NCBI RefSeq assembly: GCF_035999135.1
Contig: NZ_DASYGZ010000100.1
Span: forward strand, 4,883 to 68,882
DNA length: 64,000 bases
Direction: 5' to 3'
Source of the DNA: Ensifer sp.
GTDB taxonomy: Bacteria; Pseudomonadota; Alphaproteobacteria; Rhizobiales; Rhizobiaceae
The notes beneath the pieces were generated by a model that was not told the DNA's origin, made no database searches, and worked only from the letters and a program-made list of their open reading frames with translations. The position numbers and the translations under genes are program-made. Shown piece by piece: positions 42,473-57,409 of the stretch. Each line of letters starts with the position of its first letter. Positions within the stretch are counted from its first letter, which is position 1.

Positions 42473-43302
42473 GTGCGCTTCTGACGGTTGAAGACCTCAA
42501 GGTCTCGTTCCCGACCCGCACCGGCCTCGTCGAGGCCGTGCGCGGTGTCTCCTTCACGCTCGGCCGCGAACGCCTCGGCATCGTCGGCGAGAGCGGTTCC
42601 GGCAAGTCGCAGACCGGCCGGGCGATCATGGGGCTGACGCCTTCGCACGCCGAGGTCACGGCAAAGCAACTGTCCTTCGACGGCATCGACCTGCTTTCCG
42701 CCACGCCAAAGGTGCGCCGAGACCTCCGGGGCAAGCGCATCGCGATGATCCTGCAGGATCCGAAGTATTCGCTGAACCCAGTCATGAGCATCGGCAAGCA
42801 GATCGTCGAGACGCTCAGGCAGCATGAGAGCGTCAGCCGCAGCGAAGCCCGGGAGAGGGCGCTCGACATGCTCGCGGCTGTCCAAATCCGTGACCCGAAG
42901 CGCGTCTACGATCTCTATCCGCACGAGGTATCGGGCGGCATGGGCCAACGAGCGATGATCGCGATGATGCTGGTTGCCGGCCCGGAGCTCTTGATTGCCG
43001 ACGAGCCGACCTCGGCGCTCGACGTCACGGTGCAGCTCGAGGTGCTTGGCATTCTCGACAAGCTGGTTGCCGAGCGCGGCATGGGCCTGATCTTCGTGTC
43101 GCACGATCTTCGCCTGGTGTCGTCCTTCTGCGATCGGGTCATCGTCATGTACGCAGGCCGGATCGTCGAGGAACTGGCGGCTTCGGAACTTGCCAATGCC
43201 AAGCATCCCTATACGCAGGGGCTTCTGAACTGCATGCCGGCGATCGGCTCCGATCGCCATCCCCTGCCGGTCCTCGACCGCAAGCCGGAGTGGGCCCAAT
43301 GA
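42469..43302 (+). CDS. Peptide ABC ATPase (DppD-like)
   Basis: GESGSGKS, SGGMGQR, ADEPT, HPYT. Confidence 0.9.
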   Translation: MSALLTVEDLKVSFPTRTGLVEAVRGVSFTLGRERLGIVGESGSGKSQTGRAIMGLTPSHAEVTAKQLSFDGIDLLSATPKVRRDLRGKRIAMILQDPKYSLNPVMSIGKQIVETLRQHESVSRSEARERALDMLAAVQIRDPKRVYDLYPHEVSGGMGQRAMIAMMLVAGPELLIADEPTSALDVTVQLEVLGILDKLVAERGMGLIFVSHDLRLVSSFCDRVIVMYAGRIVEELAASELANAKHPYTQGLLNCMPAIGSDRHPLPVLDRKPEWAQ

Positions 43303-44066
43303 CATCAGCCGTTTCCGTTTCAAACGTCGTCGTTACCTATGACGAGTTCAAGGCGCTGGACGACGTCAGCGTCGAGATTGCGCCGGGCGAATCCTTCGGC
43401 CTCGTCGGCGAATCCGGGTCGGGCAAGTCGACCCTGCTGCGCGCGGTCGCCGGTCTTGCGCCGGTGACATCAGGTGCCATCCGCGTGCACGATCGGGTGC
43501 TCAAGGGCGCCAAGCGCGACAAGGCCTTCTACCGCGCGGTGCAGATGGTCTTTCAGGACCCCTACGGTTCGCTGCACCCGCGCCAGACGATCGACCGGCA
43601 GCTGCTGGAACCGCTCGCGATCCATGGCGTGGCGGATGGCGAACGCCGTATCCTGAGGGCGCTCGACGAGGTCGGTCTTGGCTCCGGGTTCCGCTTCCGC
43701 TACCCGCACCAGCTTTCAGGCGGCCAGCGGCAGCGCATCGCCATTGCCCGGGCGCTCATTCTCGAACCCTCGATCCTGCTGCTTGACGAGCCGACGTCGG
43801 CCCTCGATGCCTCGGTCCAGGCCGAGGTCTTGAACCTGCTTGAGCAGGTGCGGCGCGACCGCAAGCTGACCTTCCTCATGGTCAGCCACGATCTCGGCGT
43901 CGTTACCCATATGTGCGACCGGCTGGCGGTGATGCAGGGCGGGCGCGTCGTCGAACGGCTGTCTTCGGCAGATCTCGTCGCAGGGCGGATCGGTGAGGAT
44001 TATACCCGCAGCCTGATGGTGGCGAGCAAGGGCTTCCAGCGCAAGGAGGCAGCGCCAGCCGCCTGA
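43299..44066 (+). CDS. Peptide ABC ATPase (DppF-like)
   Basis: [21 protein letters not shown]. Confidence 0.9.
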   Translation: MTSAVSVSNVVVTYDEFKALDDVSVEIAPGESFGLVGESGSGKSTLLRAVAGLAPVTSGAIRVHDRVLKGAKRDKAFYRAVQMVFQDPYGSLHPRQTIDRQLLEPLAIHGVADGERRILRALDEVGLGSGFRFRYPHQLSGGQRQRIAIARALILEPSILLLDEPTSALDASVQAEVLNLLEQVRRDRKLTFLMVSHDLGVVTHMCDRLAVMQGGRVVERLSSADLVAGRIGEDYTRSLMVASKGFQRKEAAPAA

Positions 44067-44073
44067 CGGAAGC

Positions 44074-44096
44074 ATGAGCGGGGCGCTCCCGCTCAT
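44074..44096. terminator. Hairpin at left boundary of the sugar cluster
   Basis: ATGAGCGGG-GCGCT-CCCGCTCAT between convergent genes. Confidence 0.6.
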
Positions 44097-44135
44097 TCGT
44101 CACCTGCCAGTCGCGCCTTGCCGCGTGTCTCCCGG

Positions 44136-44873
44136 TCAGGCGCTTGCGCGCCAGACCGAGGTGGAATTGGTGATGACCTTCTCGATGCGGCGCTGCTCGC
44201 GCCACTCCCGCCCCATATCCTTGATCACGGGACTTGCCTCGGGTGAGAAGATGTAGTTTCGGCGGTTGGCGACATAGGCTTCCATTGCCGGGTTGACGCC
44301 CGAGTAGAACTGCTTCTCCGGATCGCGTGAAAGGTCCATCAGCCCGGCGCAATGCCGCGCAAAGTCTCCCCTGAGGAGGGACGGTGAGGTGGTGAACTTC
44401 GGGAAGGTGCGAAACAGCGGGATCTTGATCCCGAACAGATGGGTGTATTCGTTGCGCCGGTGGAAGTGGCCCTTGCGACGGATGTTCCAGTTCTGGTCCG
44501 CCGTGTGGAACGACACCTGCGCGATCCTGTCGTCGGAAAATGGCGCAAGCAGCTCGCGGCCCATGTTCTTCAGCGACGTCCAGTCATCCTCGAGATGGAA
44601 TATGTAGTCGGCGCTCGATGCGGACCACAGTCTTGCGACTGCTGCGCAGAAGCCGGGGCTTTCCGGCTGGAAAATCGTGCCATCGGGGAAATGTTTGCGG
44701 AAGATTTCCACGCAGGCGCGATGGTCGTCCTCCGTCCCGAACACGGGGTCGAGATTGAGATAGGCGCCGCGCAGGTCGAGTTTATGGAAAATCTTCTCCG
44801 CGAAGCTCTCGAGCGTCTGGGCAAACAGATCCGGGCGCCGCGTCGCGACAATGCATAGGTCAATAGTGGACAT
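44136..44873 (-). CDS. GT-A fold (GT2-like) glycosyltransferase, atypical
   Basis: LCIVATRRPD start, FHLEDDW acidic motif; strong AAGGAGG SD. Confidence 0.7.
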   Translation of the reverse strand: MSTIDLCIVATRRPDLFAQTLESFAEKIFHKLDLRGAYLNLDPVFGTEDDHRACVEIFRKHFPDGTIFQPESPGFCAAVARLWSASSADYIFHLEDDWTSLKNMGRELLAPFSDDRIAQVSFHTADQNWNIRRKGHFHRRNEYTHLFGIKIPLFRTFPKFTTSPSLLRGDFARHCAGLMDLSRDPEKQFYSGVNPAMEAYVANRRNYIFSPEASPVIKDMGREWREQRRIEKVITNSTSVWRASA

Positions 44874-45044
44874 AGCACCTCCTTAAGGTGTGCTTTTTTC
44901 AACCGTCAAGACCCACGCGTGCTTCAATCTCCCTTCAATCGTGCCGAATTTACGGCAAAGTGGCCGAAGATGACAAAAATGGTCGATTTTTGATGCCCAA
45001 CCGAGAAAACCGGGCTGGGCGTCCACAGTTTATGACATTGAAAA

Positions 45045-46277
45045 TCAGAAGACTTTGAGCTCGGGAATGGCGACGACGAAGCGGCCGCCCCAGTCGCGGA
45101 TCGCGGAATTATCGGCGACGATCTCGGCCTTGAGGTTCCACGGCAGGATGACCAGATAGTCCGGCCTTGCATCTTCGATGAGGGTCGGCGCGTGCACCGG
45201 AATATGGGTGCCGGGAAGAAGCTTGCCTTGCTTGAGGTCGTTCCGGTCGACTGCAAAGGCGATCTCGCTCGGCGACAGGCCACAGACGTTGAGGAAGGTG
45301 TTGCCCTTTGCGGCGGCGCCATAGGCTGCGACCGTCTTTCCTTCGGCCTTTGCGTTGGCCAGGAAGTCCTGGAAGCTTTTGCAGACCGCGGCGATGCGGT
45401 CGTCGAAGGCCTGGTAGGTCTCCATCCGCATCAGCCCCGCGAGCGCTTCGGTTGCTCGGATCCTGTCGAGTTCAAGCGTGGTCGCGCGGGTGCCGGATCT
45501 GAGCTGGGCGAAGACGCGCAGCGAACCGCCATGCGTGGGCAGTTCCTCGACGTCGAAGACCTTGAGCCCGGAGCTTTCGAAGATGCGTTCGACGGCGGCC
45601 AGCGACAGATAGGAATAGTGCTCGTGGTAGATCGTGTCGAACTGCACTTCTTCCATCAGGCGCAGGAGATGCGGGAACTCGAACGTCGCCACGCCATCGG
45701 GCTTCAGGAGAATGGCAAAACCTTCCACGAAATCGGCGATGTCGGGCACGTGGGCAAGCACGTTGTTGGCGGCCGTCAGATCGGCGCGGATGCCGCGCTC
45801 GACGAGGTCCGTGGCGGTCTTGCGGCCGAAGAAGGCAACTTCCGTCGGGACCTTGCGCTCTTCGGCAAGGCGCGCCGCATTGGCGGCGGGCTCGACACCC
45901 AGCACCGGAATGCCTTTCTCGACGAAGTACTGCAGCAGGTAACCGTCATTCGAGGCGACCTCCACGACTTGCGCGTTTTCATCGAGCCCAAAGCGTTCCG
46001 ACATCGTCTCGGCGTAGCGGCGGGCGTGCGCAAGCCAGCTCGACGAGAAAGAGGACAGGTAGGCGTATCCGTCGGTGAAGATCTCGTCGGCCGGCACGGT
46101 CTCTGTCGTCTGCACCAGCAGGCACTCCGAGCAGACCATCGCCTTCAATGGAAACGAACGTTCGCGGGCGATGGCTTCCTGCGTCGGCTCAAGGAACGAG
46201 TTTGACCACGGGGTCGAGCCCAGGTCGGCAACGACGGTCGAAAGCGGGGTCGAGCAGAAACGGCAATTGTGGGACAT
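45045..46277 (-). CDS. NDP-sugar C-methyltransferase-like protein
   Basis: CRFC...CSEC Zn knuckle, EVASNDG, ANNVLAHVPD, YHEH, YGAAAKG C-terminal domain. Confidence 0.88.
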   Translation of the reverse strand: MSHNCRFCSTPLSTVVADLGSTPWSNSFLEPTQEAIARERSFPLKAMVCSECLLVQTTETVPADEIFTDGYAYLSSFSSSWLAHARRYAETMSERFGLDENAQVVEVASNDGYLLQYFVEKGIPVLGVEPAANAARLAEERKVPTEVAFFGRKTATDLVERGIRADLTAANNVLAHVPDIADFVEGFAILLKPDGVATFEFPHLLRLMEEVQFDTIYHEHYSYLSLAAVERIFESSGLKVFDVEELPTHGGSLRVFAQLRSGTRATTLELDRIRATEALAGLMRMETYQAFDDRIAAVCKSFQDFLANAKAEGKTVAAYGAAAKGNTFLNVCGLSPSEIAFAVDRNDLKQGKLLPGTHIPVHAPTLIEDARPDYLVILPWNLKAEIVADNSAIRDWGGRFVVAIPELKVF

Positions 46278-46285
46278 CGAAGTCG

Positions 46286-47353
46286 TTAGCCTCTCATGAA
46301 TGCATCGATTTGGCTGAGTGTCAGGTCACGGGCGTCGCCACCCCGGCGCCAGCCGTCGTACCAGCGGGCGGTCCAGTCGATCGCCTCGTGCTGCGAGAGG
46401 CGTGCGGCCCAGGAGAGGGTGCGTCCCGCGAGCGCCGGGTCGAGGCCCAGCGTCTTCATCTCGCGCGGTTGATCCTCGGACGAGGTGTCGCGCCATTCGG
46501 CGGGCAGTCCCATCGCCGTCTGGATCGCGGCGGCCACGTCGCGCACCGGGATCTGGGGCTCACTCGGGGAGGGGCCGAAGTTCAAGGCGCCGACATCGGT
46601 TTCGCCGGCGTGAAGCGCTTCGGCAAAAACGAGATAGCCGTTGAGGCAGTCAAGCACGTGCTGCCACGGCCGGGTCGCCATCGGGCTGCGGATATCGAGG
46701 GTCGAGCCCGATTGCGCGGCACGGACGATATCGGGCACCAGTCGGTCGACCGAGAAATCGCCGCCGCCGAGCACGTTGCCGCCGCGAGCGGTCGCCAGCC
46801 GGACGCCGCGTTCGCGCAGGAAGGAATCCCGCCAGGTCGACACCACCAGTTCGCAAGCGGCCTTCGAGCCGGAATAGGGGTCGTGGCCGCCGAGCACCGC
46901 GTCCTCAGGAAAATGCCGACCGCTTTCGTCATTGCGATAGACCTTGTCGGTGGTCACGACGACGACGGTCTTCAGCGCCGCGCACGCACGGGCAGCGTCC
47001 AGCAGGCGCACGGTTCCCATGACGTTGACGTCGAAGGTGTCGGCCGGCCTGCGATAGCTTTCGCGCACCAGCGGCTGGGCCGCCATGTGGAGAAAGATCT
47101 CCGGCTCACAGTCACGGATCGCCGCGGCCAGAGCGTCCCCGTCCCTGATGTCGCCAAGGTGGTCGCCGGCGTTGTGCCCGGGTCCGAGCAGGCCATGGAG
47201 GGACGGCTCGGCCGCGGGCGGCAGCGCATATCCCGTCACGCTCGCGCCCATCTGGCGCAGCCAGAGCTGTGCCCAGCTGCCCTTGAAACCGGTGTGGCCG
47301 GTCAAGAAAACCCGCTTGCCGGCCCAGAAGGACGGGGTCGCACGTCGGGTCAT
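46286..47353 (-). CDS. rfbG: CDP-glucose 4,6-dehydratase
   Basis: TGHTGFKGSW, HMAAQPLVR, TTDKVY, YSGSK, RPWQHVLD. Confidence 0.93.
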   Translation of the reverse strand: MTRRATPSFWAGKRVFLTGHTGFKGSWAQLWLRQMGASVTGYALPPAAEPSLHGLLGPGHNAGDHLGDIRDGDALAAAIRDCEPEIFLHMAAQPLVRESYRRPADTFDVNVMGTVRLLDAARACAALKTVVVVTTDKVYRNDESGRHFPEDAVLGGHDPYSGSKAACELVVSTWRDSFLRERGVRLATARGGNVLGGGDFSVDRLVPDIVRAAQSGSTLDIRSPMATRPWQHVLDCLNGYLVFAEALHAGETDVGALNFGPSPSEPQIPVRDVAAAIQTAMGLPAEWRDTSSEDQPREMKTLGLDPALAGRTLSWAARLSQHEAIDWTARWYDGWRRGGDARDLTLSQIDAFMRG

Positions 47354-48117
47354 GCCCAGACTTTCCAGGGGGCGGTACCACTTTGCCAGAGGTCTTCAAG
47401 CTGGTTCTTGTCGCGCAGCGTGTCCATCGGCCGCCAGAAACCGCCATGCTCGAAGGCCATCAACTGGCCTTCCGCCGCCAATCCCTCCAAGGGCTCCGCC
47501 TCGAACGGTGTGTGGTCACCCTCGATCCGATCGAGCACCGATCGGTTGAGAACGAAGAAGCCGCCGTTGATGTGGCCGTTGTCGCCGGCCGGCTTCTCGA
47601 TGAAGCTGCGCACCCGCCCGTCGCTGACGGCAAGCGCACCGTAGCGGCCCGGCGGGATGACGCTGGTAACGGTCGCCTGGCGGCCATGGTGGCGGTGGAA
47701 GTCGGTCAGCGCCTTGATATCGATGTCGGCGACGCCGTCGCCGTAGGTCAGGCAGAACGTATCGCCGAGATGGTCGGCGACACGCTTCAGGCGCCCACCG
47801 GTCATGCTGTCGGTTCCGGTGTCGACCAGCGTCACGCGCCACGGCTCGGCCTTGTTCGAGTGAAACAGGGTTTCGCCCGTCGCCATGCAATAGGTGACGT
47901 CGGAAGAGTGCAGCACGTAGTTGGCAAAGTATTCCTTGATCATGTAGCCCCGGTAGCCGAGGCAGATCACGAAATCCGAAAAGCCATAGTGGCTGTAGAT
48001 CTTCATGATGTGCCACAGGATCGGCCGCCCGCCGATTTCGATCATCGGCTTTGGCCGGAGATGGCTCTCCTCCGAGATGCGCGTGCCGTAACCACCCGCG
48101 AGAATGACGATTTTCAT
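47350..48117 (-). CDS. rfbF: Glucose-1-phosphate cytidylyltransferase
   Basis: ILAGGYGTRISEE, RPKPM, TYGDG, FWRPMDTLRD. Confidence 0.95.
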   Translation of the reverse strand: MKIVILAGGYGTRISEESHLRPKPMIEIGGRPILWHIMKIYSHYGFSDFVICLGYRGYMIKEYFANYVLHSSDVTYCMATGETLFHSNKAEPWRVTLVDTGTDSMTGGRLKRVADHLGDTFCLTYGDGVADIDIKALTDFHRHHGRQATVTSVIPPGRYGALAVSDGRVRSFIEKPAGDNGHINGGFFVLNRSVLDRIEGDHTPFEAEPLEGLAAEGQLMAFEHGGFWRPMDTLRDKNQLEDLWQSGTAPWKVWA

Positions 48118-48214
48118 GCGACCGCCCCGTATTTGCGCCGACCCATACCCGGCGCATTTCAAAGTCCTAATATCCTGGTGACCTTGCGCGGAGGTGGTCT
48201 CCGTGCTGGGGCCT

Positions 48215-49324
48215 TCAGGCGGCGAGGCAGCCACGCAGGACGTCGACAACGCGGCCGATCTCCTCGGCCGTCATGTCGTGATAGCTCGGCAGATTGATCG
48301 CCCGGCCGGGAAGGTCGTAGGCCGTGGTGTTGGCCGGCACGCCTTCAAATGGCGGCAGCGAACTCAACGGCCAGAAGAACACGCGCGCGTCAATGTTTTC
48401 GGCAGCAAATGCGTCCTGGAGTTTTTCCCGGGTTACGCCGGTTTCCGGCGCGAAGACGACGGTGGGCATCCAGAAGCCGTTCTGCGTTCCTTCCGGCTCC
48501 GGGTTCATCGCAACCGCGTTCACGCCGGCAAGGAGGTCCCGGTAGGCGTAGAAGATGGCGCGCTTGCGTTCGACCAGTTCGCCGACCCGCTCGATCTGGG
48601 CGAGACCAACGGCCGCCTGCAGGTTCGACATCTTGTACTTGAAGCCGATTTCGTCCGGCCAGAACTGCTTTTTCTGCCCGCGGGCGCGGCCGTGATTGGA
48701 GAGCGTCAGCACCTTTTCGTGGAGCTTGGCGTCACTGGTCACGAACATGCCGCCTTCGCCTGTCGTCACCGTCTTGGTGCCATGGAAGGAGAAGGCGCCG
48801 AAAGCGCCGAGCGAGCCTGCCTTGCGTCCACGCCATTCCGATCCGAGCGCTTCGGCCGCATCCTCGACAACCGGAATGCCGTGTCGCGCGCCGATGTCCA
48901 GCAGCCGGTCCATGTCGCAAAGGTTGCCGTAGATATGGACGGCGATGATCGCCTTGGTTCGTGGCGTGATTGCCGCTTCGGCCCTTTCCGGATCGATGCA
49001 CCAGCTGTCTGAAAGCACGTCGACGAAGACAGGCTTTGCCCCGAGATGAACGATCGGGGCGGCAGACGCCGTCCAGTTGGTGTCGGCAAGGATCACTTCG
49101 TCGCCGGGGCCGACGCCGAGTGCGGCAAGGCCCATATGCAGTGCGCCAGTGCAGCTCGACGTCGAGATCGCGTGCGCGGCGCCGAGATGGGTCGCAAACG
49201 CGGCTTCGAACCGATTGATGTAGTCGTAGCAGCGCTCGCCCCAGCCGTTGGCCGCCGCGTCCGTTGCATAGGCCACCTCGCGGTCGGTGATCGAGGGCTT
49301 GGTGTAGAGAATGCGCGGTTTCAT
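48215..49324 (-). CDS. DegT/DnrJ/StrS PLP sugar aminotransferase (perosamine-synthase-like)
   Basis: SSCTGALH, VEDAAEA, SFHGTKTVTTGEGG, GFKYKM. Confidence 0.92.
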   Translation of the reverse strand: MKPRILYTKPSITDREVAYATDAAANGWGERCYDYINRFEAAFATHLGAAHAISTSSCTGALHMGLAALGVGPGDEVILADTNWTASAAPIVHLGAKPVFVDVLSDSWCIDPERAEAAITPRTKAIIAVHIYGNLCDMDRLLDIGARHGIPVVEDAAEALGSEWRGRKAGSLGAFGAFSFHGTKTVTTGEGGMFVTSDAKLHEKVLTLSNHGRARGQKKQFWPDEIGFKYKMSNLQAAVGLAQIERVGELVERKRAIFYAYRDLLAGVNAVAMNPEPEGTQNGFWMPTVVFAPETGVTREKLQDAFAAENIDARVFFWPLSSLPPFEGVPANTTAYDLPGRAINLPSYHDMTAEEIGRVVDVLRGCLAA

Positions 49325-49361
49325 GCGGTAGCCAATCGATTGAGGCGAGGATGGTGCTTCG

Positions 49362-50513
49362 TCAAAGCCAGACGTGGTCGAGCCCAGTTCGCTGCAGCCA
49401 GGGCTGGGCGGCGATCGCGTCGCGGGCCTTCAGCGGATTGAGGCCGATGAACAGCGCTTCGGCTCCCTCGGGCAGGTCCTCCGGGGGGAGGACCGGAATG
49501 CCGAAATGGGTGGTGCCGCGCAGGTTTTCGTTGCGATCGAGGAAGGCCACGACATCGACGTCCTGACCGATCCGGCAGTAGATCCAGCTTCCGTAGAATC
49601 CGGCGCCATAGATCGCGACTTTGCGCCGGGCGTAGCGTTCAACTCCGCCCTCAAGCGCTTCGGATGCGCGCTCCCAGAAGGCGCAGATCTCGCGTGCCTC
49701 GGTCGCGGCTTCGTCGGCCGATTTTGAGGTGCGGGCGGTTTCAACGGCCGTATCGGCGCGCCTTGCCACAACGAAGAAGGCGCCGGGGAACGAGGTCTTG
49801 TCGATCGTCGTCAATTCGAACCCGGCGCTTGCAAGGGCATGCGCAAGCGAGGCTTCGCTGAAGTGATTGAGGTGATCGGCGACCGCCATGTCACCCGGAT
49901 TTCCAGCGACGTCCGGCATCGAAAACAGGACGCTGCCGCCAGCGCGAAGCAGTGCGTGCACGTCGCGCAGAAAGCCGACCGGATCGGCCACGTGCTCGAT
50001 GACGAAATGGCTCATCACCGCATCGAACGTTCCCTTCCAGGCCTCCGGCACCGCGTAGGTCGCTTGCGCCGCTTCCGGCACCCAGCCCTGCCAGGCGGGG
50101 GCATAGTCCGAACTCACCTCGAAGACGGAAGGGCGCAGGTCGCCCCGGGCAAGAACCATCTTGCGCAAGGTGTCCGCCTTGGCCGCGCCGAAGTCGAGGA
50201 TCGAGGCACCTTCCGGCAGATCCAGCAGTCGCAGCGACAGGGCGGCCTGATGGTCGGTCCGGTAGATGATCGTGCCGTCAGCTGCGACCGCGAAGATCTG
50301 GTCGTGGTTGTCGCTGCTCAGCGATATCCGGTACTCCGTGTCATAGAAGGCCTGAATATCCGGAATTTCGTCGCTTTGCGAATGTCCGCAGTCGCCGCAC
50401 ACGAACACGCGGGTCGGCACGTCGAGCAGTGTCGTGCCCGAGGTCAGGGCCGGCGCCGGCGCTTCGTAGGACGGGGCGCCGATGTGGCTGCCACAAACTC
50501 GGCATGCGGTCAT
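49362..50513 (-). CDS. Class I SAM methyltransferase with Zn knuckle
   Basis: CRVCG...CGDCG, LDFGAAKA, IEHVADP, AIYGAG. Confidence 0.8.
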   Translation of the reverse strand: MTACRVCGSHIGAPSYEAPAPALTSGTTLLDVPTRVFVCGDCGHSQSDEIPDIQAFYDTEYRISLSSDNHDQIFAVAADGTIIYRTDHQAALSLRLLDLPEGASILDFGAAKADTLRKMVLARGDLRPSVFEVSSDYAPAWQGWVPEAAQATYAVPEAWKGTFDAVMSHFVIEHVADPVGFLRDVHALLRAGGSVLFSMPDVAGNPGDMAVADHLNHFSEASLAHALASAGFELTTIDKTSFPGAFFVVARRADTAVETARTSKSADEAATEAREICAFWERASEALEGGVERYARRKVAIYGAGFYGSWIYCRIGQDVDVVAFLDRNENLRGTTHFGIPVLPPEDLPEGAEALFIGLNPLKARDAIAAQPWLQRTGLDHVWL

Positions 50514-51367
50514 GCAAGTTCTCCCTCAGGAGCGACCAGTTCCGGCAGCACTTCGGCGAAGTTGACGCCGGCGGCGAACGAACCCTTCCAGCCGATGCGG
50601 ATACCGACCGGATCGGCGTAGTTGAAGTAGCGGAACTGGATGCTCCAGCGCGGCGTCTGCGACACGTTGTGGCCGGACTGGTGCAGCGTCAGGAAGTCCA
50701 TCAGGATCAGGTCGCCGGGATTGCTGAGCGGGGCGACATGCTTGTAGCGCGCCAGGCGTTCCTCGCCCTTGTGCAGATACAGCGAATAGGCGCCGGTCTT
50801 GCCAAGGTCCGCTCCGTCCTCATAGACCGGAACGAAGCCCTCGGCGTGGGAGCCCTCGGCAATCTGGACAGGACCCATGTCGGCCAAGACAGGCAGCAGC
50901 GGCGTCCAGAAGACGACGCCATCGGCGCTGCGCAGCTGCGCCGGAAACTCCTGGTGCCATTGCGAACGGAACTTTTCTTCACCCGGATTGTCGATGCGGA
51001 TGCCGTAGCCGCCGGCGGCGATGCCGGGCGCACTGCCCGGGCGAAGCGCCTTGAAGACCTCGTCGTTGGCGGCGGCACTGACAAGCCGCATGAAGGCCGG
51101 GATCTGCTTGACCGCATCATAGACCTCGCCACCCCAGGAGCGGTTGACGGCGATCAGCTTGCGATAGGCAATGGTCATGGCTTCATGCGCGGTTCCGGTC
51201 GGCGCTTCGACGCCGTACTTCTTGCAGAGCAATTCGAGGATCTGGCGGATGCCTTCCTGGATTGGTGCGATCTGTGCCTGAACGTCGTAGAAGCCGGGGA
51301 CCACATGGTAGCCCTTGGTTTCGAATTCCTGGCGCGCGCTCTCGGAAATGATGGTGCCGTTGTTCAT
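50510..51367 (-). CDS. PhyH-family Fe(II)/2-oxoglutarate dioxygenase
   Basis: WHQE, VFWTPL, LHQSGHN, RWS. Confidence 0.85.
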   Translation of the reverse strand: MNNGTIISESARQEFETKGYHVVPGFYDVQAQIAPIQEGIRQILELLCKKYGVEAPTGTAHEAMTIAYRKLIAVNRSWGGEVYDAVKQIPAFMRLVSAAANDEVFKALRPGSAPGIAAGGYGIRIDNPGEEKFRSQWHQEFPAQLRSADGVVFWTPLLPVLADMGPVQIAEGSHAEGFVPVYEDGADLGKTGAYSLYLHKGEERLARYKHVAPLSNPGDLILMDFLTLHQSGHNVSQTPRWSIQFRYFNYADPVGIRIGWKGSFAAGVNFAEVLPELVAPEGELA

Positions 51368-51505
51368 GATACGCCTGTTTCCTCCTTCAGGAATTCCTGC
51401 CGTGAGACGGTCGTCGGTAACAAAATGCCGGCGCGCATCAGGCTCGGTGCGCGCGGTCAGGTCCAGGATGAAAATCTAATGGGCGAAGCTTTCCCCAGGC
51501 TGTGG

Positions 51506-52216
51506 CTATCCCTTGGGAATGGCGGCGTCGGCGACAACGATCCTGTCGATCCGGCCGCCGATCTGCGCGCCGGCATAGAGGTTCTCATAGTAGCGGGCAG
51601 GGAAACCCGCCTCACGCATGTGGAACGCCGTCCGATCGATGTCGTATTCGACGCGATGCAGTTCGATGTCGCCCGCCGGCGACATGAGCGCGAAGGCTGC
51701 GCGCGGATCACCGTCGCGTGGCTGCCCGACCGAGCCGGGATTGCAGAACGTCTTGCCACCGATGTCGAGACGCACCTGCACATGGGTATGGCCGGCAAAA
51801 AGCCGCGCGGCGCCTTCAGGGAAATGCACTTCCGAGACCTGGTAGAGATACTCGTCGACTGGATCCTGCCAGCTCCCATGGACAAAAAAGGTCGATCCGT
51901 CGACCAGGCGGGATCGCGACCCGGCAAGCCAGGCGTGCTGTTCCGCCGAGATGATGCCCCGCTGATATTCGATGATGTCGTTGACCATCTTCGAGCGCGG
52001 GCAGCCTTCGCCGCTCACAATATAATGGTCGTGATTGCCCATGATGTTGACGATGCCGCGGGCCTTCAGGCGGTCGATGCAGTCGCCCGGTTGGGCGTAG
52101 TAACCGACGACGTCGCCGAGCGACAGGATCGTGCTGCAGCCGAGTGCATCGATGCGGGCAAGCACGGCCTCAAGCGCGGGGAGATTGCCGTGGATGTCGG
52201 AAATGACCGCGATCAT
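51506..52216 (-). CDS. Calcineurin-like metallophosphoesterase
   Basis: SDIHGN, GDVVGY, GNHD, HG, GHTH, NPGSVGQPRD. Confidence 0.9.
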   Translation of the reverse strand: MIAVISDIHGNLPALEAVLARIDALGCSTILSLGDVVGYYAQPGDCIDRLKARGIVNIMGNHDHYIVSGEGCPRSKMVNDIIEYQRGIISAEQHAWLAGSRSRLVDGSTFFVHGSWQDPVDEYLYQVSEVHFPEGAARLFAGHTHVQVRLDIGGKTFCNPGSVGQPRDGDPRAAFALMSPAGDIELHRVEYDIDRTAFHMREAGFPARYYENLYAGAQIGGRIDRIVVADAAIPKG

Positions 52217-53211
52217 TGGACGACCAGATCCTCGGCGTAGCGCCAGGCCCGTCCGGGTCTGATGTCGGGTTCTTCCGGCCTTTTGCCGTAGAGGTAGTAG
52301 TCGAGCGCCATTTCCGCCTCGTTGTAGCCGAAGGCTGCGCGCAGCGACGTGCTGCTCGAGAAACGCGGGTTGATCTCCAGCAGATAGGCTGTCGTACCGT
52401 CCAACCGGAACTGATAGTTCGTCGGTCCGAGCGGCTTGAAGTGTCGCGCGAGGCGTTGCACGGCCTCGACCACGACAGGTGCGTCGACCACCTCTGCGTA
52501 CTGGGTATTGCCGGCAACCGACAGCTTGCGCTTGAAGACGATGGGCGAAAGCGTGGTGCCATCGCCGAAGCCGAAGGCTCCAACGGTGTATTCCTGGTCG
52601 TTGCTGCCGACATATTTCTGGATGACGAAGTCATCGTCGCTCTTCTTCGTCCAGTAGTCGAAGTCGGCGACATCGCGCAAAAGCGCAATACCGCGCGAAC
52701 CGTTGCCGCGGCGCGGTTTGAGCAACAGGGGCAGGGGACCGAGTTCGCGCGTGCAGGCGTCAAGCGAGCGGCTGAGCGTGCTCGGGATGGCGGGAAAGCC
52801 TGCGTCGAGAAGTGCCTCGCCCATGTCCCATTTGTCCTGCCCGACGTCGATCAGCGACGGCGTGTTCAGGGCAATGCGCGCCTCGGTCTGTGCAAATTTC
52901 GCTCGGTTCTCGTGGAAGAAGGTCACGTCCAGCTCGAGGCCGGGCAGCACCAGCGCGACATTCTCTCGCTCTATCAGCGCGAGCCAGAAGTCGAGGTAGT
53001 CTCGCGAACTCTCGTCGCAGGCAGGCTTTGTGACAAAGTGGTCGCAGAAGTAGCGGCCGATGCCATTGGCGTCACGGTCGACGCCGATGATCCTGACCGG
53101 CGTTTTTGACTTGCGCAGCGACGCCACGATGCCCTGGCCAATGATTGCGCCAACCGCCGTCACCACGACCGTCACCTGCTGCGTCGATTGCTTCGTGTCG
53201 TCTTCAGTCAT
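52213..53211 (-). CDS. ATP-grasp protein (PylC/carbamoyl-phosphate-synthase-like)
   Basis: QDKW, KPRRGNGSRG, QKYVGSNDQEYTV, LEINPRFS. Confidence 0.88.
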   Translation of the reverse strand: MTEDDTKQSTQQVTVVVTAVGAIIGQGIVASLRKSKTPVRIIGVDRDANGIGRYFCDHFVTKPACDESSRDYLDFWLALIERENVALVLPGLELDVTFFHENRAKFAQTEARIALNTPSLIDVGQDKWDMGEALLDAGFPAIPSTLSRSLDACTRELGPLPLLLKPRRGNGSRGIALLRDVADFDYWTKKSDDDFVIQKYVGSNDQEYTVGAFGFGDGTTLSPIVFKRKLSVAGNTQYAEVVDAPVVVEAVQRLARHFKPLGPTNYQFRLDGTTAYLLEINPRFSSSTSLRAAFGYNEAEMALDYYLYGKRPEEPDIRPGRAWRYAEDLVVQ

Positions 53212-54083
53212 TTGACGTCCATCGGGCCGAATGCATCGGCCGTCCCCATTGTCTTGATCATGGCAATCCCGTCCCTCATCGTGATGAGAGGCTGCATGCC
53301 CAGATGCGCGAGCGTGGTTGCTCCGTCCGGGAAATTGACCTTTCGAAACGGCGCCTTTTCCGTCGCGATCACCACCTGGCCGCCGCGCCCGAATGTCTCG
53401 TAGGCGAGGGCAGCGATAGCATCCGAGGTCATGGCCTCGGTATGCACGGCGTCCAGCACGCCCAAGGCACCGGTTTCGGCGGCCCGTATCATCAAGTCTG
53501 CCGCGTCCTGGACGTGCAGGAAGTTGCGCACGCCGTGTGAGGTCGGCATGCGCAGGTCCATGCCGCGCGAGGCATAGGCGATGATGCGGCCGAACCAGGG
53601 TTGATGGGCGCAGCAGCGCCCTTCAACGTCATAGAGCTGCGAGAAGCGGAGGCTGCAAAAGCCAAAGCCGTGTTTCTGCGCGCTCCACTCGAGGATTTTT
53701 TCTGCCAGCTGCTTGGACATTCCATAGGAGGTCAGCGGTGCTTCATCGAGTGTCGCGTCCGAGGATAGCGATCCGGCATGGATGAGGGTCCTCGCCCGCA
53801 GCCGCTGAGCGAGCTCGGCCACGTGAAGTGCGCCCATGGTGTTGGCCGCGAAATTCTGCCGGATGCCCGAAGGGCCATCGTCACCGAAGCTGGCGGCAAC
53901 ATGGAAGAGTGCGTCCACGGTCAGGCCATCGGGCACGATCGGCGCGCCCTCCACGAGGTCGAAGACGATGTCATCGGTCTGCGCCCTGCCGACGCTGACC
54001 GTCTCGACGCCGAGGCGCCGAAGACGCTCGACGAGCGCGTGTCCCAGCATCGAGCGCGGGCCGATGACGGCGGCTTTCTTCAT
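53208..54083 (-). CDS. Extended SDR NAD(P)-dependent epimerase/reductase
   Basis: Degenerate GPRSMLG, YGMSK, RNFLHVQD. Confidence 0.8.
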   Translation of the reverse strand: MKKAAVIGPRSMLGHALVERLRRLGVETVSVGRAQTDDIVFDLVEGAPIVPDGLTVDALFHVAASFGDDGPSGIRQNFAANTMGALHVAELAQRLRARTLIHAGSLSSDATLDEAPLTSYGMSKQLAEKILEWSAQKHGFGFCSLRFSQLYDVEGRCCAHQPWFGRIIAYASRGMDLRMPTSHGVRNFLHVQDAADLMIRAAETGALGVLDAVHTEAMTSDAIAALAYETFGRGGQVVIATEKAPFRKVNFPDGATTLAHLGMQPLITMRDGIAMIKTMGTADAFGPMDVK

Positions 54084-54096
54084 GCGGACCAGGCTT

Positions 54097-54870
54097 TCAC
54101 GCGGTGAACTCCCTCCAGTCGACCGTTCCGGAATGCACGAGCTTTGCGCCTTCGGCGCCGCAATTGGCGACGAGGTCCAAAGCGGTCACGTAAGGGGTGA
54201 ACGCGCCGTGCAGCTGCGGATAGGGCGTGCGCTCATAGTTCATGTAGCGGACCGCTATTCCGTTCTGCCCGAAGAGATCGTGATCGAGATAGTTCCGCGC
54301 GCCATGGCCGGTGATGTAAACCGTGCCTTCGAGATGCGCAGTGATGTCGTAGACCCGCTCGCTGCTCGCGCCGCCGATCACCAGGCGGTCCGACGAGACG
54401 AAGATCGGCCGGTTCAGGCCGAAATAGGCGGCGAGCGCCAGCATGGAATTGCGGGCGACATCGGCGACCGTCGCGGTGTCCCTGGCGAACACGTCGTCGA
54501 CCAGGGCGAGCATGTCCTTGACGTACGGCGCCTTGCCGTAGGCCTGGCGCAGGATATCGCGATGACGGCTTTTCCAGTCGGCCCGATCGTCGATCAGCAC
54601 TTCGTCGATCCGTTGCCCCAGGTGGAAGTCCTTCAGCGGAAGGGTCAGCCAGCGGATGCCGTTGTCAGTCTTGATCTGCACGCGGTTTGTAAAGCTGCCG
54701 CGGGAAAACTGAACATCGTCGTAGTGGACGAACACATCCGCGAGCTTGATCTGCTCCAGCATGCCAACCCATGGAAAGTACATGGATTGCGAGATGACAA
54801 TGTTGCGAGCCATCGGGTCGTCGCCTGGGGTCGGTGTTGTCACGTGTCGCGTGCTGGAAATGGGTGCCAA
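54097..54870 (-). CDS. WbqC-like protein
   Basis: QSMYFPWVG, YDDVQF, NRVQIKT, WLTLP; start 54870 (TTG) or 54813. Confidence 0.88.
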   Translation of the reverse strand: MAPISSTRHVTTPTPGDDPMARNIVISQSMYFPWVGMLEQIKLADVFVHYDDVQFSRGSFTNRVQIKTDNGIRWLTLPLKDFHLGQRIDEVLIDDRADWKSRHRDILRQAYGKAPYVKDMLALVDDVFARDTATVADVARNSMLALAAYFGLNRPIFVSSDRLVIGGASSERVYDITAHLEGTVYITGHGARNYLDHDLFGQNGIAVRYMNYERTPYPQLHGAFTPYVTALDLVANCGAEGAKLVHSGTVDWREFTA

Positions 54871-54888
54871 AGGTCCTTGCGCCCGGGC

Positions 54889-55641
54889 CTACTTCCGCAC
54901 GCAGCGCAGGTAGCCGCGCGGCGAGCTGGAGAGGACGAGCTTGCCGTTCAGCGCCTCGTCAATCTCGAAGCGCGTCTCCTCTTCCATGTAAGCCTTGAGC
55001 GCTGCATAGGGCTCGTCGCCGGCATGCCAGATCTTGGAGCGCTTAGTCGGCGTCTGCGTGTCGTCGCCGAAGCCGAGCAGCGTATCGGCGACAACCATGT
55101 ATTGCCCCTCGGTCACCAGCGGGCCGTAGGTGCGCAATTCGTCGAGCACGTGGTCGCGGCTGTGGTCGCTGTCGAGCACCACCATGACCGAGGCGCCCTC
55201 GGGGATCTCGGCCTTGACCTTGGCGAGCGTTTCCGCCGTCGTCGAAGGACCTTCGATCAGCGTGATGCGCGACGACATCGGGTGTTTTTCGATCGAATCG
55301 CGGTTGTGGGCGCGGATGTCGATGTCGACGCCGATGACCTTGCCCTTGCCGATGAGCTGCAGCATCGCCGCCATGAAGATCACCGAGCCGCCGCGGGCAA
55401 CGCCCGTCTCGATGATGATGTCAGGCTTGGTGTTCCAGATGACTTCCTGGGTCGCCATGACGTCAGCGGGCATCTGGATGATCGGCACGCCCATGAAGGA
55501 CCAGAGGTAGGAGTAGTCGTACTTGTCGAGCGTGACCAGGGTGTCGAGCGACTGCTGGAAGGCGTCCCTGTCCTTGCCAAGCGCAAGGGCCATCTCCGTC
55601 TTGTGGGCTTCGAATGCGAGACGATCGTCAACTACTGTCAT
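54889..55641 (-). CDS. CmcI (cephalosporin hydroxylase)/rhamnosyl O-methyltransferase family protein
   Basis: QMPADV, KPDIIIETGVARGGS, LDSDH, YMVVADT. Confidence 0.88.
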   Translation of the reverse strand: MTVVDDRLAFEAHKTEMALALGKDRDAFQQSLDTLVTLDKYDYSYLWSFMGVPIIQMPADVMATQEVIWNTKPDIIIETGVARGGSVIFMAAMLQLIGKGKVIGVDIDIRAHNRDSIEKHPMSSRITLIEGPSTTAETLAKVKAEIPEGASVMVVLDSDHSRDHVLDELRTYGPLVTEGQYMVVADTLLGFGDDTQTPTKRSKIWHAGDEPYAALKAYMEEETRFEIDEALNGKLVLSSSPRGYLRCVRK

Positions 55642-55830
55642 TGCTGCCTGACACCCTTTAGTGAATGCAATCTACGGATGCGCCTCTGGTCGCGAATCGC
55701 GATCAATGGCGTTTCAGCGATTCGTAACGTTTTCCTGTGAACGCTTTCATGTCGGCAATTGCAAATACGGTCAAGGCCGGTTTCTTAAGGGCGAAAAGAC
55801 GGGTAGATCTGGGCCCTGGCGGAAGGTTGC

Positions 55831-56376
55831 ATGTCGCGATTCGAACTGATTTCTACACCTATAGCGGGTCTCACGGTTGTCGAACGTCAACGCAGGGGCG
55901 ACGACCGCGGATTTTTCTCGCGCTTCTTCTGCCGCGATGCGCTGGCCGACTTTGGGACAGGTGGCACGATCGCCCAGATCAACCATACGCTGACGCAAGC
56001 CGCAGGCACGATCCGCGGCCTGCATTTCCAGCGCCCGCCGCACGACGAGGCGAAGTTCGTCTCGTGCCTTTCGGGCGCCGTCTTCGACGTGGCTGTCGAC
56101 TTGAGGCCCGGGTCCCCGACCTATCTGCACTGGCACGGCGAGGTCTTGAGCGCTCACAACGGCCGCTCGATGATGATCCCCGGCGGTTTCGCGCACGGGT
56201 TCCAGACGCTTGAAGACGATTGCGAACTGATCTACCTGCACGACAAGCCCTATGCGCCCGATGCCGAAGGCGGGCTCAACCCGCTCGATCCGGGGCTCGC
56301 CATTGCCTGGCCGCTGCCGATCGCGCAGATGTCCGAGCGCGACCAGGCCCTGCCGGTTCTGACCGCCGCGGGCTGA
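55831..56376 (+). CDS. rfbC: NDP-4-keto-6-deoxyhexose 3,5-epimerase (RmlC/RfbC family)
   Basis: DDRGFFSR, RGLHFQ, VDLRPGSPTY, AHGFQTL. Confidence 0.92.
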   Translation: MSRFELISTPIAGLTVVERQRRGDDRGFFSRFFCRDALADFGTGGTIAQINHTLTQAAGTIRGLHFQRPPHDEAKFVSCLSGAVFDVAVDLRPGSPTYLHWHGEVLSAHNGRSMMIPGGFAHGFQTLEDDCELIYLHDKPYAPDAEGGLNPLDPGLAIAWPLPIAQMSERDQALPVLTAAG

Positions 56377-56460
56377 CGGTCTTCCCCTGCGTCGTTGACT
56401 TCACGGAGGATGGGAGGAGAATGAGATCTCCGCGCCACCACGACAGAAGGGGTGTCGACG

Positions 56461-56931
56461 ATGACGATCGCTAGAAAACTTCAGGACTACATCGACGGTG
56501 CGGGGGTCGCCTACGACACCGTTGACCATCACCGCACGGCCACCACCAGCCAGACGGCGCGGGCGGCGCATGTGCCCGGCAGCCGGCTTGCCAAGTCCGT
56601 CGTCGTCCACCACGAGATGGGCTACGTGCTCGCGGTGGTGCCCAGCACCCATCGGGTCGAGCTTTCCACCCTGCAGGACGTGATGGACCGCCGCCTGGGT
56701 CTCGCCTCCGAGGAAGAAGTCTCAACGCTCTTTGCCGACTGCGATATCGGCGCGGTGCCGCCCGTCGGAACCGCCTATGACGTGCCGGTGCTGCTCGACG
56801 AAAGCCTCGGCGAGGTGAACGACGTCTATTTCGAAGGCGGCGACCACCGGACGCTGGTGCATATGAGCGGCGCGAATTTCCGCAACCTGATGAAGGATGC
56901 GCGGGTCGCTCGCTTCAGCCACCCGGCGTGA
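56461..56931 (+). CDS. YbaK/ProX aminoacyl-tRNA deacylase-family protein
   Basis: LAKSVV Lys, GAVPPVG, FEGGDH. Confidence 0.85.
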   Translation: MTIARKLQDYIDGAGVAYDTVDHHRTATTSQTARAAHVPGSRLAKSVVVHHEMGYVLAVVPSTHRVELSTLQDVMDRRLGLASEEEVSTLFADCDIGAVPPVGTAYDVPVLLDESLGEVNDVYFEGGDHRTLVHMSGANFRNLMKDARVARFSHPA

Positions 56932-57073
56932 TCAGAGCCGATACCGCTTCAGCCGGGAAATGATTGCCAACCGAAGCGAGCACTGTTTTCGCGATCTCGC
57001 CGGGCGGACTTGTCAAAACGCGGGCTTGGCAGCACCATCGCAACCTTGGGTCAATCAGGTTTGGGGATCGACG

Positions 57074-57409
57074 ATGCGCATGAGCTCGACGAACATATCC
57101 ACATGCTTGGCAGCGGTGCTGGTCGTGGCCGGCGCGCAGGCTTTCGGGTCTGCCGCGCACGCCGAAGGCACCATCTTCGATCAGTTTCCGTTTGCTGTCG
57201 CCTGCGAATACAAGGGCACCCAGCATGCATTCTATCTGGCGAAAGTCGCGTCGGACGGGACCGCGACCTACATCGCCTCGGACAATTTCGCCGGAACGAT
57301 CACGTTGCATGGCGAAGCCAAGGCAGTCGGATCCGACGCCGGCGGAAGCTGCCTTGGAAAGACGCTCGCTGAGCTGAGAGCATCAGGCCAGGCGCGCGAT
57401 ATCAAGTAG
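57074..57409 (+). CDS. Small secreted hypothetical protein
   Basis: Signal peptide (AHA-E), two mature Cys. Confidence 0.65.
   Translation: MRMSSTNISTCLAAVLVVAGAQAFGSAAHAEGTIFDQFPFAVACEYKGTQHAFYLAKVASDGTATYIASDNFAGTITLHGEAKAVGSDAGGSCLGKTLAELRASGQARDIK

Follow-up and report, generated by a model that had tools for sequence, protein, structure and literature searches.

Introduction

The flagellin sugar of Pseudomonas syringae is 2-O-methyl-4-(3-hydroxybutanamido)-4,6-dideoxyglucose, and N-acylkansosamine from the lipooligosaccharide (LOS) of Mycobacterium kansasii is 4,6-dideoxy-2-O-methyl-3-C-methyl-4-(2-methoxypropionamido)-L-manno-hexose. Cytidine diphosphate (CDP)-vinelose from Azotobacter vinelandii contains 6-deoxy-3-C-methyl-2-O-methyl-L-talose, and we know of no assignment of genes to it. 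In Escherichia coli O121, N-acetylglycine is borne on a 4-amino-4,6-dideoxyhexose. Here we analyze a locus whose predicted product is chemically similar to the P. syringae sugar: a 12-kb block of 13 intact genes, hereafter the island, in a 64,000-nucleotide stretch of Ensifer sp. DNA (assembly GCF_035999135.1, contig NZ_DASYGZ010000100.1, positions 4,883 to 68,882), which we call the window and whose first nucleotide is position 1.

Some types of enterobacterial flagellin glycosylation islands encode the synthesis of CDP-4-keto-6-deoxyglucose (De Maayer & Cowan 2016, PMC4875605). N-acylkansosamine has been described as a unique terminal LOS sugar of M. kansasii with unknown biosynthesis, in a source that does not itself confirm the structure given above (PMC4403928), and an amide-linked N-acetylglycine substituent is documented for E. 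coli O121 (PMC7685785). The flagellins of Rhizobium leguminosarum and Agrobacterium are reported to be glycosylated, and we did not find the glycan or its genes described (PMC2936354). We propose that protein glycosylation is split here, with the island as its sugar-donor half and flagellin as its most likely target, a reading to which we assign about an even chance.

Results

Twelve of the 13 genes run in one direction on the minus strand, and a gene for an RmlC-like epimerase is divergent from them. Genes were assigned from an open reading frame (ORF) listing together with Pfam and NCBIfam scans of the window proteins, and for the 13-gene inventory of an initial annotation made from the sequence alone the listing upheld the coordinates and the scans the family assignments. 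Entry into the pathway through CDP-glucose is indicated by two adjacent genes, those for the glucose-1-phosphate cytidylyltransferase RfbF (47350–48117, minus strand; TIGR02623, 440.6 bits versus a cutoff of 300.25) and the CDP-glucose 4,6-dehydratase RfbG (46286–47353, minus strand; TIGR02622, 454.6 bits versus a cutoff of 278.45), both above curated equivalog cutoffs. Together, these enzymes would convert glucose-1-phosphate to CDP-4-keto-6-deoxy-D-glucose. The RmlC-like protein (55831–56376, plus strand; PF00908, E = 3e-58; TIGR01221, 155.9 versus a cutoff of 155.75), a predicted 3,5- (or 3- or 5-) epimerase of nucleoside diphosphate (NDP)-4-keto-6-deoxyhexoses whose family was also backed by a PDB sequence search, would then epimerize this intermediate.

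The methyl branch at C-3 would be introduced by an enzyme of the TylC3/TcaB9/KijD1 type (CMT; 45045–46277, minus strand; Methyltransf_13, Methyltransf_23 and Methyltransf_14). Its three-domain architecture is complete, with PF08421, PF13489 and PF08484 all above cutoff. The best PDB match is the mycarose 3-C-methyltransferase 4rv9 (residues 4–406, E = 7e-85), and TcaB9/3ndi and 5t64 were matched at E = 1e-67 to 1e-70. By family, CMT is thus a well-supported member of the NDP-hexose 3-C-methyltransferases, with the corresponding activity and regiochemistry predicted. The DegT-family pyridoxal phosphate-dependent aminotransferase (48215–49324, minus strand; PF01041, E = 6e-122) is probably a C-4 aminotransferase, because it is nearest to the perosamine synthetases 3bn1 and 3dr4 (E = 5e-77), which are 4-aminotransferases, and not to E1 dehydrase (partial match, 1e-36; RfbH model, 171 bits versus a cutoff of 423). 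It would aminate the sugar at C-4. A 3,6-dideoxyhexose pathway (abequose, paratose or tyvelose) was rejected, as DegT is not E1-like and the block lacks an E3-like (DdhD) reductase. Family evidence for these first five steps is strong, and CDP-4-amino-4,6-dideoxy-3-C-methyl-hexose is their predicted product. For everything past them we infer from module logic, and the expected end product is a CDP-activated N-acyl-4-amino-4,6-dideoxy-3-C-methyl-O-methyl-hexose. The genes present are in keeping with one sugar; of the "one or two" heavily decorated monosaccharides anticipated in the initial annotation, the decoration is retained and the second sugar is not.

To place the island among genomes, we used its PhyH-family protein as a marker in one genome per species, collected 80 loci, and then ran the window proteins against them by tblastn. 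These loci come from organisms including Ensifer, Rhizobium, Pararhizobium, Azorhizobium, Hyphomicrobium, Sphingobium, Rhodobacterales, Stappia, Parvibaculum, picocyanobacteria and Planctomycetes. RfbF, RfbG, the 3-C-methyltransferase, RmlC, DegT, the methyltransferase CmcI, WbqC, PhyH and a second methyltransferase, ZnMT, form a co-conserved syntenic core. Given this synteny across 80 loci and several phyla, the cluster is judged not to be a chance arrangement; the cassette is widespread, its decoration modules are exchangeable, and the island is one of its variants. In the protein database, PhyH has 1304 relatives at E ≤ 1e-20; the marker was present in 5 of 151 genomes of a family-level sample, which is too sparse for co-occurrence tests. 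The enzyme set had been called unusual; it is indeed uncharacterized, but with 80 syntenic loci it is not peculiar to this strain. Literature searches (WbqC; CDP with 3-C-methyltransferase; kansosamine) found no characterization of the cassette gene set, in agreement with the initial annotation, which did not recognize the combination as a described rhizobial pathway.

In Rhizobium laguerreae and its relatives, in Hyphomicrobium and in Sphingobium, a family 2 glycosyltransferase (GT2) of 412–415 amino acids (aa) is encoded between rmlC and the DegT gene. These proteins are 52–57% identical to one we call GT2f, and Azorhizobium cassettes carry a GT2 with 41–42% identity to it. GT2f is the sole ortholog in the window's genome, where it is encoded on another contig (C22:37363–38604) and shares 55% identity with the cassette GT2. 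In Blastomonas, another Rhizobium and Mesorhizobium, members of the GT2f family are attached to rfbF/rfbG/CMT/rmlC sets with quite different decorations. Because the family is joined to such differently decorated sets, we take it to be the transferase that travels with the branched CDP-sugar. Foldseek comparison of a GT2f model confirmed a GT-A fold and is silent on the acceptor; the protein carries a DDD motif that is invariant, and its C-terminal domain is unmatched. As a soluble GT-A enzyme, GT2f would transfer the sugar in the cytoplasm. Within the genus, all 15 genomes with GT2f contain the island.

GT2f is divergent from fla587, a gene for a 587-aa flagellin (C22:39164–40924, minus strand), and the pairing occurs in six of the seven genus genomes carrying the PhyH cassette. 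The fla587 product is longer than the flagellin copies on contig C136, has a central domain of ~360 aa, and is conserved at 77–86% in several genus genomes. Pararhizobium encodes 620-aa relatives (46–47%), each with a CtrA box ~75–90 bp upstream. Flagellin genes of the window's genome are located on contigs C22, C136 and C91. Perfect TTAA-N7-TTAAC sites were found upstream of GT2f, fla587 and the tandem C136 flagellin genes, and in the intergenic region between the C91 flagellin gene and a gene for a GT41 protein. The genome contains 28 perfect sites versus ~6 expected from base composition, and five of them are flagellin-linked. An extended form, GGTTAAC-N5-GTTAACCATG, is common to many of the 28, of which the five linked to flagellin were looked at more closely. 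The cassette loci, 1.6 Mb in all, contain the motif at only one site, preceding a flagellin gene. GT2f and fla587 are probably co-regulated through CtrA, judging from these putative boxes.

A second glycosyltransferase recurs in these contexts. In Sphingobium sufflavum, the cassette is followed by genes for a TPR-GT41 protein, a flagellin, a sigma-54 activator and FliF, and in Mesorhizobium a TPR-GT41 gene is divergent from GT2f. In an Undibacter metagenome-assembled genome (MAG), the cassette is followed by a GT2 gene and two flagellin genes. Within the core flagellar cluster at C91:1–7662, the window's genome encodes an OGT/SPINDLY-like TPR-GT41, a 50% homolog of the Mesorhizobium protein, between a flagellin gene and fliP-fliL-flgH-flgI-flgA-flgG. 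It is present in 23 of 23 genus genomes, and on five complete chromosomes its gene lies 42–46 kb from GT2f. The TPR-GT41 of the flagellar regulon would probably act together with GT2f. An apparent flanking of the Pararhizobium sp. PWRC1-1 cassette by long flagellin genes was discarded, as those genes are on a different contig; the long Pararhizobium flagellins are unlinked to the cassette.

Collectively, these data are consistent with the proposed role of the island as the sugar-donor half of a flagellin glycosylation system. Its description in the initial annotation as a nucleotide-sugar tailoring island with an acceptor encoded elsewhere is supported, and flagellin is the best supported of the acceptors then listed, given GT2f beside a flagellin gene, the CtrA boxes, cassettes abutting flagellins in two lineages, and the GT41 in the flagellar regulon. 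Like the flagellin glycosylation islands, the system would rely on soluble glycosyltransferases (GTs), with no lipid-carrier GT, flippase or polymerase, and none of the alphaproteobacterial cassette contexts examined contains lipid-carrier machinery. Decoration modules would be swapped between strains as gene cassettes and thereby diversify a surface epitope.

A number of observations weigh against flagellin as the target. A flagellin gene lies within 10 kb of the cassette in only 2 of the 80 loci. In the window's genome the island occupies its own site, neither within nor next to flagellar genes, although such proximity is seen for GT2f and for the Sphingobium and Undibacter cassettes; on the two complete genus chromosomes where both were located, island and GT2f are at least 1.6 Mb apart. 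No CtrA box, allowing up to one mismatch, was found in or around the island. The adjacent flagellin gene is missing in 8 of the 15 GT2f genomes. In one of these eight, which lacks the PhyH cassette and carries island variant E2 (see below), only the final 106 codons of a long flagellin remain beside GT2f, in a decayed gene (L090:9178–9495). Fisher tests at the genus level gave p = 0.0005 and 0.008 and were discounted, as GT2f presence is a single clade split: it follows one deep division of the genus, GT41 identity being 78–93% in genomes with GT2f versus 61–62% in the rest, and the co-occurrence would amount to roughly one evolutionary event. Four genus genomes carry a minimal island with the in-island candidate GT245 and without GT2f; therefore GT245 could be the real transferase, acting on another acceptor. 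For WbqC, PhyH, ZnMT and the ATP-grasp module, the chemistry given here is an inference. A search for RNA-seq data returned a single run with island sequence, which was DNA from an algae metagenome.

Two further cassette contexts point away from flagellin and toward the main rival, in which lipopolysaccharide (LPS) O-antigen or capsule carries the sugar at a terminus or on a side chain. Its addition would take place at the cytoplasmic face, onto a lipid-linked glycan built by clusters elsewhere in the genome, for example those on contigs C224 or C207. We consider this rival rather unlikely in the window's genome. Immediately upstream of the cassette in Cyanobium sp. N.Huapi 1H5 (L073:1942–4016) are genes for Wzm, for a Wzt that has the cap-binding Wzt_C domain and for a methyltransferase, and three more GT2/methyltransferase genes lie downstream, an arrangement that bears the signature of an ABC-type O-polysaccharide locus with a terminal cap. 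The Rhizobium cassette adjoins genes for GNVR co-polymerase-like, cellulase and acyltransferase_3 proteins. In addition, WbqC is named after an O-antigen cluster, with an amide-linked N-acetylglycine in E. coli O121 (PMC7685785), GT245-family genes accompany other 6-deoxyhexose pathways near other GTs, and the genome contains other polysaccharide clusters. Against this, GT2f adjoins a flagellin gene and has a CtrA box, and tblastn of the genome found no transporter with a Wzt_C-type domain. Exporter, polymerase, ligase and priming GT are unlinked to the island or GT2f in the Ensifer, Hyphomicrobium, Stappia, Rhodophyticola and Pararhizobium contexts. Consistently, the families matched at 43–57 kb of the window include no flippase, polymerase, ABC exporter, priming transferase or acyl carrier protein (ACP), so the initial annotation was right that the block has no wzx, wzy, wzm/wzt, priming GT or ACP; exporter, polymerase and initiating transferase are absent around GT2f as well. 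The O-antigen cap that it listed as a possible acceptor thus holds for cyanobacteria and comes second to flagellin for this genome. The cassette is best seen as a portable donor module that serves different acceptor systems.

A second polysaccharide cluster, at C224:25000–39500, carries separate copies of rfbF and rfbG (49% and 40% identical to those of the island), together with genes for a 412-aa DegT-like protein, an SDR-family protein, a GT4, a GT2, a PMT_2/ArnT-like membrane protein, a cysD/cysN-APS kinase and a Wzy_C protein. C207:12000–18500 contains a second rmlC (39% identical), a dehydratase-like SDR gene and a gene for a Wzt-like ABC ATPase without detectable Wzt_C; this region may be an rml/O-polysaccharide locus.

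GT245 (44136–44873, minus strand) is a 245-aa GT2-like protein and a possible divergent GT-A enzyme. Its match to PF00535 (17.8 bits, E = 0.0034) is below the gathering threshold of 23.3, its profile found nothing in the PDB, and hhalign aligned it weakly with GT2f in GT-A register (E = 0.068). It has an invariant E95-D96-D97 motif and is unrelated to the cassette GT2. A search at E ≤ 1e-5 gathered 138 members of the GT245 family, of which those with a named source belong to Rhizobiaceae and Pleomorphomonas; genes of the family adjoin other 6-deoxyhexose pathways. The glycosyltransferase that the initial annotation placed in the island is therefore a weak, possible GT-A candidate, which may add or extend a residue, and the transferase that travels with the pathway is on another contig.

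Nevertheless, GT245 is the sole transferase candidate kept in all genus island variants, even those without GT2f. Together with the persistence of GT2f where the neighboring flagellin has been lost, and with cassettes in unflagellated picocyanobacteria, this would suit another acceptor, such as a small molecule, a glycolipid, or a secreted or surface protein outside the flagellum, for instance a pilin or an adhesin; the transferase would then be GT245, and the GT2f–flagellin adjacency would be incidental. We regard this as improbable. GT245 is not demonstrably a glycosyltransferase, the Pfam and NCBIfam scans found no polyketide synthase (PKS), nonribosomal peptide synthetase (NRPS), lipid or pilin genes linked to the island, and three independent lineages tie the cassette or its GT to flagellin genes. 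Neither nod nor PKS or NRPS genes are linked to the island, and Nod-factor and secondary-metabolite readings were rejected on that ground. That the island was acquired and is now silent or decaying, without current product, as its mosaic structure and patchy distribution might suggest, is very improbable, because all 13 ORFs are full length relative to their relatives, without stops or frameshifts and with translational coupling retained, and because amino-acid identity of 80–96% against nucleotide identity of 82–86% to relatives points to purifying selection, the GC content, close to that of the flanks, being decisive neither way.

Within the genus, the island is inserted beside a dppF-like ABC ATPase gene (43290–44066, plus strand), which marks a conserved insertion site and is 90–97% identical beside every island variant. 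On the other side lies a ybaK-like tRNA_edit gene (56452–56931, plus strand), which adjoins the island in clade-A genomes; the location between dpp and ybaK given in the initial annotation is thus correct. The search for the gene set across genomes that it had suggested showed patchy presence, and the dppF site holds at least five variants. Variant E1 combines GNAT, WbqC, PhyH and ZnMT, E2 combines WbqC, a methyltransferase, SDR, ATP-grasp and a metallophosphoesterase (MPE) without PhyH or ZnMT, E3 and E4 lack both DegT and WbqC, and the fifth is the window's own. By blastn, the window is collinear with E1 over 43000–51506 and with E2 over 51525–57404, and the breakpoints fall in intergenic gaps, with the module junction assigned to 51368–51505. 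The window island is therefore a mosaic of E1 and E2, and its "unusual enzyme set" a recombinant of two local variants.

In another Rhizobium sequence (CP013590.1:238431–257669), the chromosomal site that the cassette occupies in R. laguerreae shows a different exchange. There, rfbF-rfbG-CMT-rmlC-GT2f-DegT is joined to LuxC-like, FabA-like, TPP-enzyme, NeuB-like and GNAT genes that replace CmcI/WbqC/PhyH/ZnMT. This gene set is another decoration module.

The decoration enzymes of the window begin with WbqC (54097–54870, likely start 54813, minus strand), which matches PF08889 over profile positions 1–216 of 218 (E = 1e-65, 221.6 bits versus a gathering threshold of 21.3). Its AF2 model has a pLDDT of 95, and its best Foldseek match is to BshC, which adds cysteine during bacillithiol synthesis; at E = 1.3e-3 and TM 0.42 the match is marginal, and the likeness is only a lead, not an assignment. 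In our dataset WbqC is confined to DegT-bearing variants and absent from DegT-less ones; WbqC is therefore probably tied to the amino group. PDB sequence searches with WbqC, ZnMT and PhyH found no relative. The PhyH-family Fe(II)/2-oxoglutarate dioxygenase (50510–51367, minus strand; PF05721, E = 2e-11) and ZnMT (49362–50513, minus strand; Pfam), an S-adenosylmethionine (SAM) methyltransferase with a weak, degenerate N-terminal Zn-ribbon and without the TylC3-type C-terminal domain, are a pair: ZnMT always neighbors PhyH, and the two are kept together in nearly all of the 80 loci. PhyH would hydroxylate, and ZnMT methylate, the sugar or its acyl group. The CmcI/rhamnosyl O-methyltransferase-family enzyme (54889–55641, minus strand; PF04989, E = 2e-70) would O-methylate a ring hydroxyl.

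The remaining genes encode the SDR with an epimerase/reductase fold (53208–54083, minus strand; PF01370, E = 2e-17), the ATP-grasp ligase (52213–53211, minus strand; NF009402, 248 bits versus a cutoff of 218) and the calcineurin-like MPE (51506–52216, minus strand; PF12850, E = 9e-20). Among the cassette loci, MPE was found only together with the ATP-grasp and SDR genes. GNAT occurs in ~60 of the 80 loci and the SDR/ATP-grasp/MPE module in 13 loci and the window, never both; those 13 usually also carry an extra small methyltransferase. In most loci GNAT is beside WbqC, and no pairing in the cassette is more frequent than that of WbqC with an acetyltransferase. The amine may thus be acylated in two steps, one by WbqC and the second by GNAT in most genomes or by the SDR/ATP-grasp/MPE module in the window. 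In the close relative Ensifer adhaerens L18, the interval from CmcI to WbqC (L002, 9238–9288) holds no GNAT and no ATP-grasp module, and this variant would leave the second acylation step undone.

Further features concern the layout of the block. The initial annotation had noted many 4-bp start/stop overlaps; the overlaps are real and are found in four pairs, rfbG/rfbF, ZnMT/PhyH, MPE/ATP-grasp and ATP-grasp/SDR. The divergent intergenic region between the 12-gene operon and rmlC (55642–55830) contains no CtrA box. The start of RfbF was set at the Met at 48117, although the ORF is open to a TTG at 48249, because the family match and the relatives begin there. No hydrophobic 19-mer above 1.65 was found in the block proteins except in a Rossmann strand of the ATP-grasp ligase, and all 13 proteins are predicted to be soluble and without a membrane-spanning stretch. 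A 132-aa ORF (44924–45322, minus strand) was rejected as spurious: it lies in another frame over the 3' part of the CMT gene and has no family match.

Discussion

If the island does supply flagellin, the sugar island, GT2f, TPR-GT41 and fla587 would provide a concrete, deletable gene set for rhizobial flagellin glycosylation. The cassette is widespread, with more than 1300 PhyH-marker relatives, and contains at least three proteins without assigned chemistry, namely WbqC, the PhyH enzyme and ZnMT. For those chemistries, the either/or exchange between GNAT and the ATP-grasp/phosphoesterase/SDR module offers a natural experiment. Moreover, the presence of one donor cassette in alphaproteobacterial flagellin systems and in a picocyanobacterial ABC-type O-polysaccharide locus suggests that rare-sugar modules move between classes of glycoconjugate.

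A bolder combination joins three proposals: that the product is a kansosamine-like sugar (N-acyl-4-amino-4,6-dideoxy-3-C-methyl-2-O-methyl-L-hexose), that WbqC is a new amide-forming enzyme, and that the flagellin system is dispersed in three parts. All of these holding at once is doubtful, at perhaps one chance in four. If they did, this would be the first report of a kansosamine-like sugar outside mycobacteria and on any flagellin. WbqC would put an amino-acid-like unit on the 4-amine, GNAT and the ATP-grasp/MPE/SDR module would be interchangeable second-step cappers, and PhyH and ZnMT would build a methoxy group. The three dispersed parts of the Rhizobiaceae system would be the sugar island, GT2f with a giant flagellin as its neighbor, and the TPR-GT41 of the flagellar regulon. 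Cassette swapping would diversify the epitope, with flagellotropic phages or plant immune recognition as plausible selective pressures.

Among known systems, the flagellin glycosylation islands of P. aeruginosa, P. syringae and enterobacteria resemble this one in having strain-variable nucleotide-sugar enzymes, aminotransferases, methyl- and acyltransferases and soluble GTs, without flippase or polymerase. In contrast to them, the sugar genes here lie outside the flagellar locus, between dppF and ybaK, with the transferase at least 1.6 Mb away; a CDP-activated sugar with a branch at C-3 is predicted; and the decoration set comprises uncharacterized WbqC, PhyH and Zn-methyltransferase proteins with GNAT or ATP-grasp alternatives.

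With respect to the sugar itself, the island has a candidate enzyme for each functional group of the N-acylkansosamine structure: dehydratase, epimerase, 3-C-methyltransferase, 4-aminotransferase, CmcI-type O-methyltransferase, N-acylation module, and a hydroxylase with a methyltransferase. In M. kansasii, a different organism, the acceptor is also different, being a glycolipid, and as the mycobacterial genes are undefined the likeness is one of substituent pattern. CDP-vinelose is likewise a CDP-activated 3-C-methyl, 2-O-methyl 6-deoxy-L-hexose, and the DegT-less variants (E3, E4, Blastomonas and Mesorhizobium) would make a vinelose-type sugar, to which the window variant would add 4-amination and N-acylation.

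CMT shares its three-domain architecture with the enzymes of the TDP-sugar 3-C-methyl pathways (TylC3, TcaB9, KijD1, mycarose; 4rv9, 3ndi and 5t64 at E = 1e-67 to 7e-85), but those pathways place dTDP-sugars on secondary metabolites, whereas here the pathway is CDP-based and no aglycone pathway is present. The Qui4N branch of E. coli O121 and Shigella dysenteriae 7, from which the name WbqC derives, has a similar two-part amide of an amino acid and an acetyl group; it differs in being a dTDP pathway of a Wzx/Wzy O-antigen without a C-methyl branch, and the role of WbqC there is not established. Viewed against these systems, the island is not a new kind of system or principle. What distinguishes it is its dispersed architecture, its clean module swapping and its three uncharacterized enzyme families.

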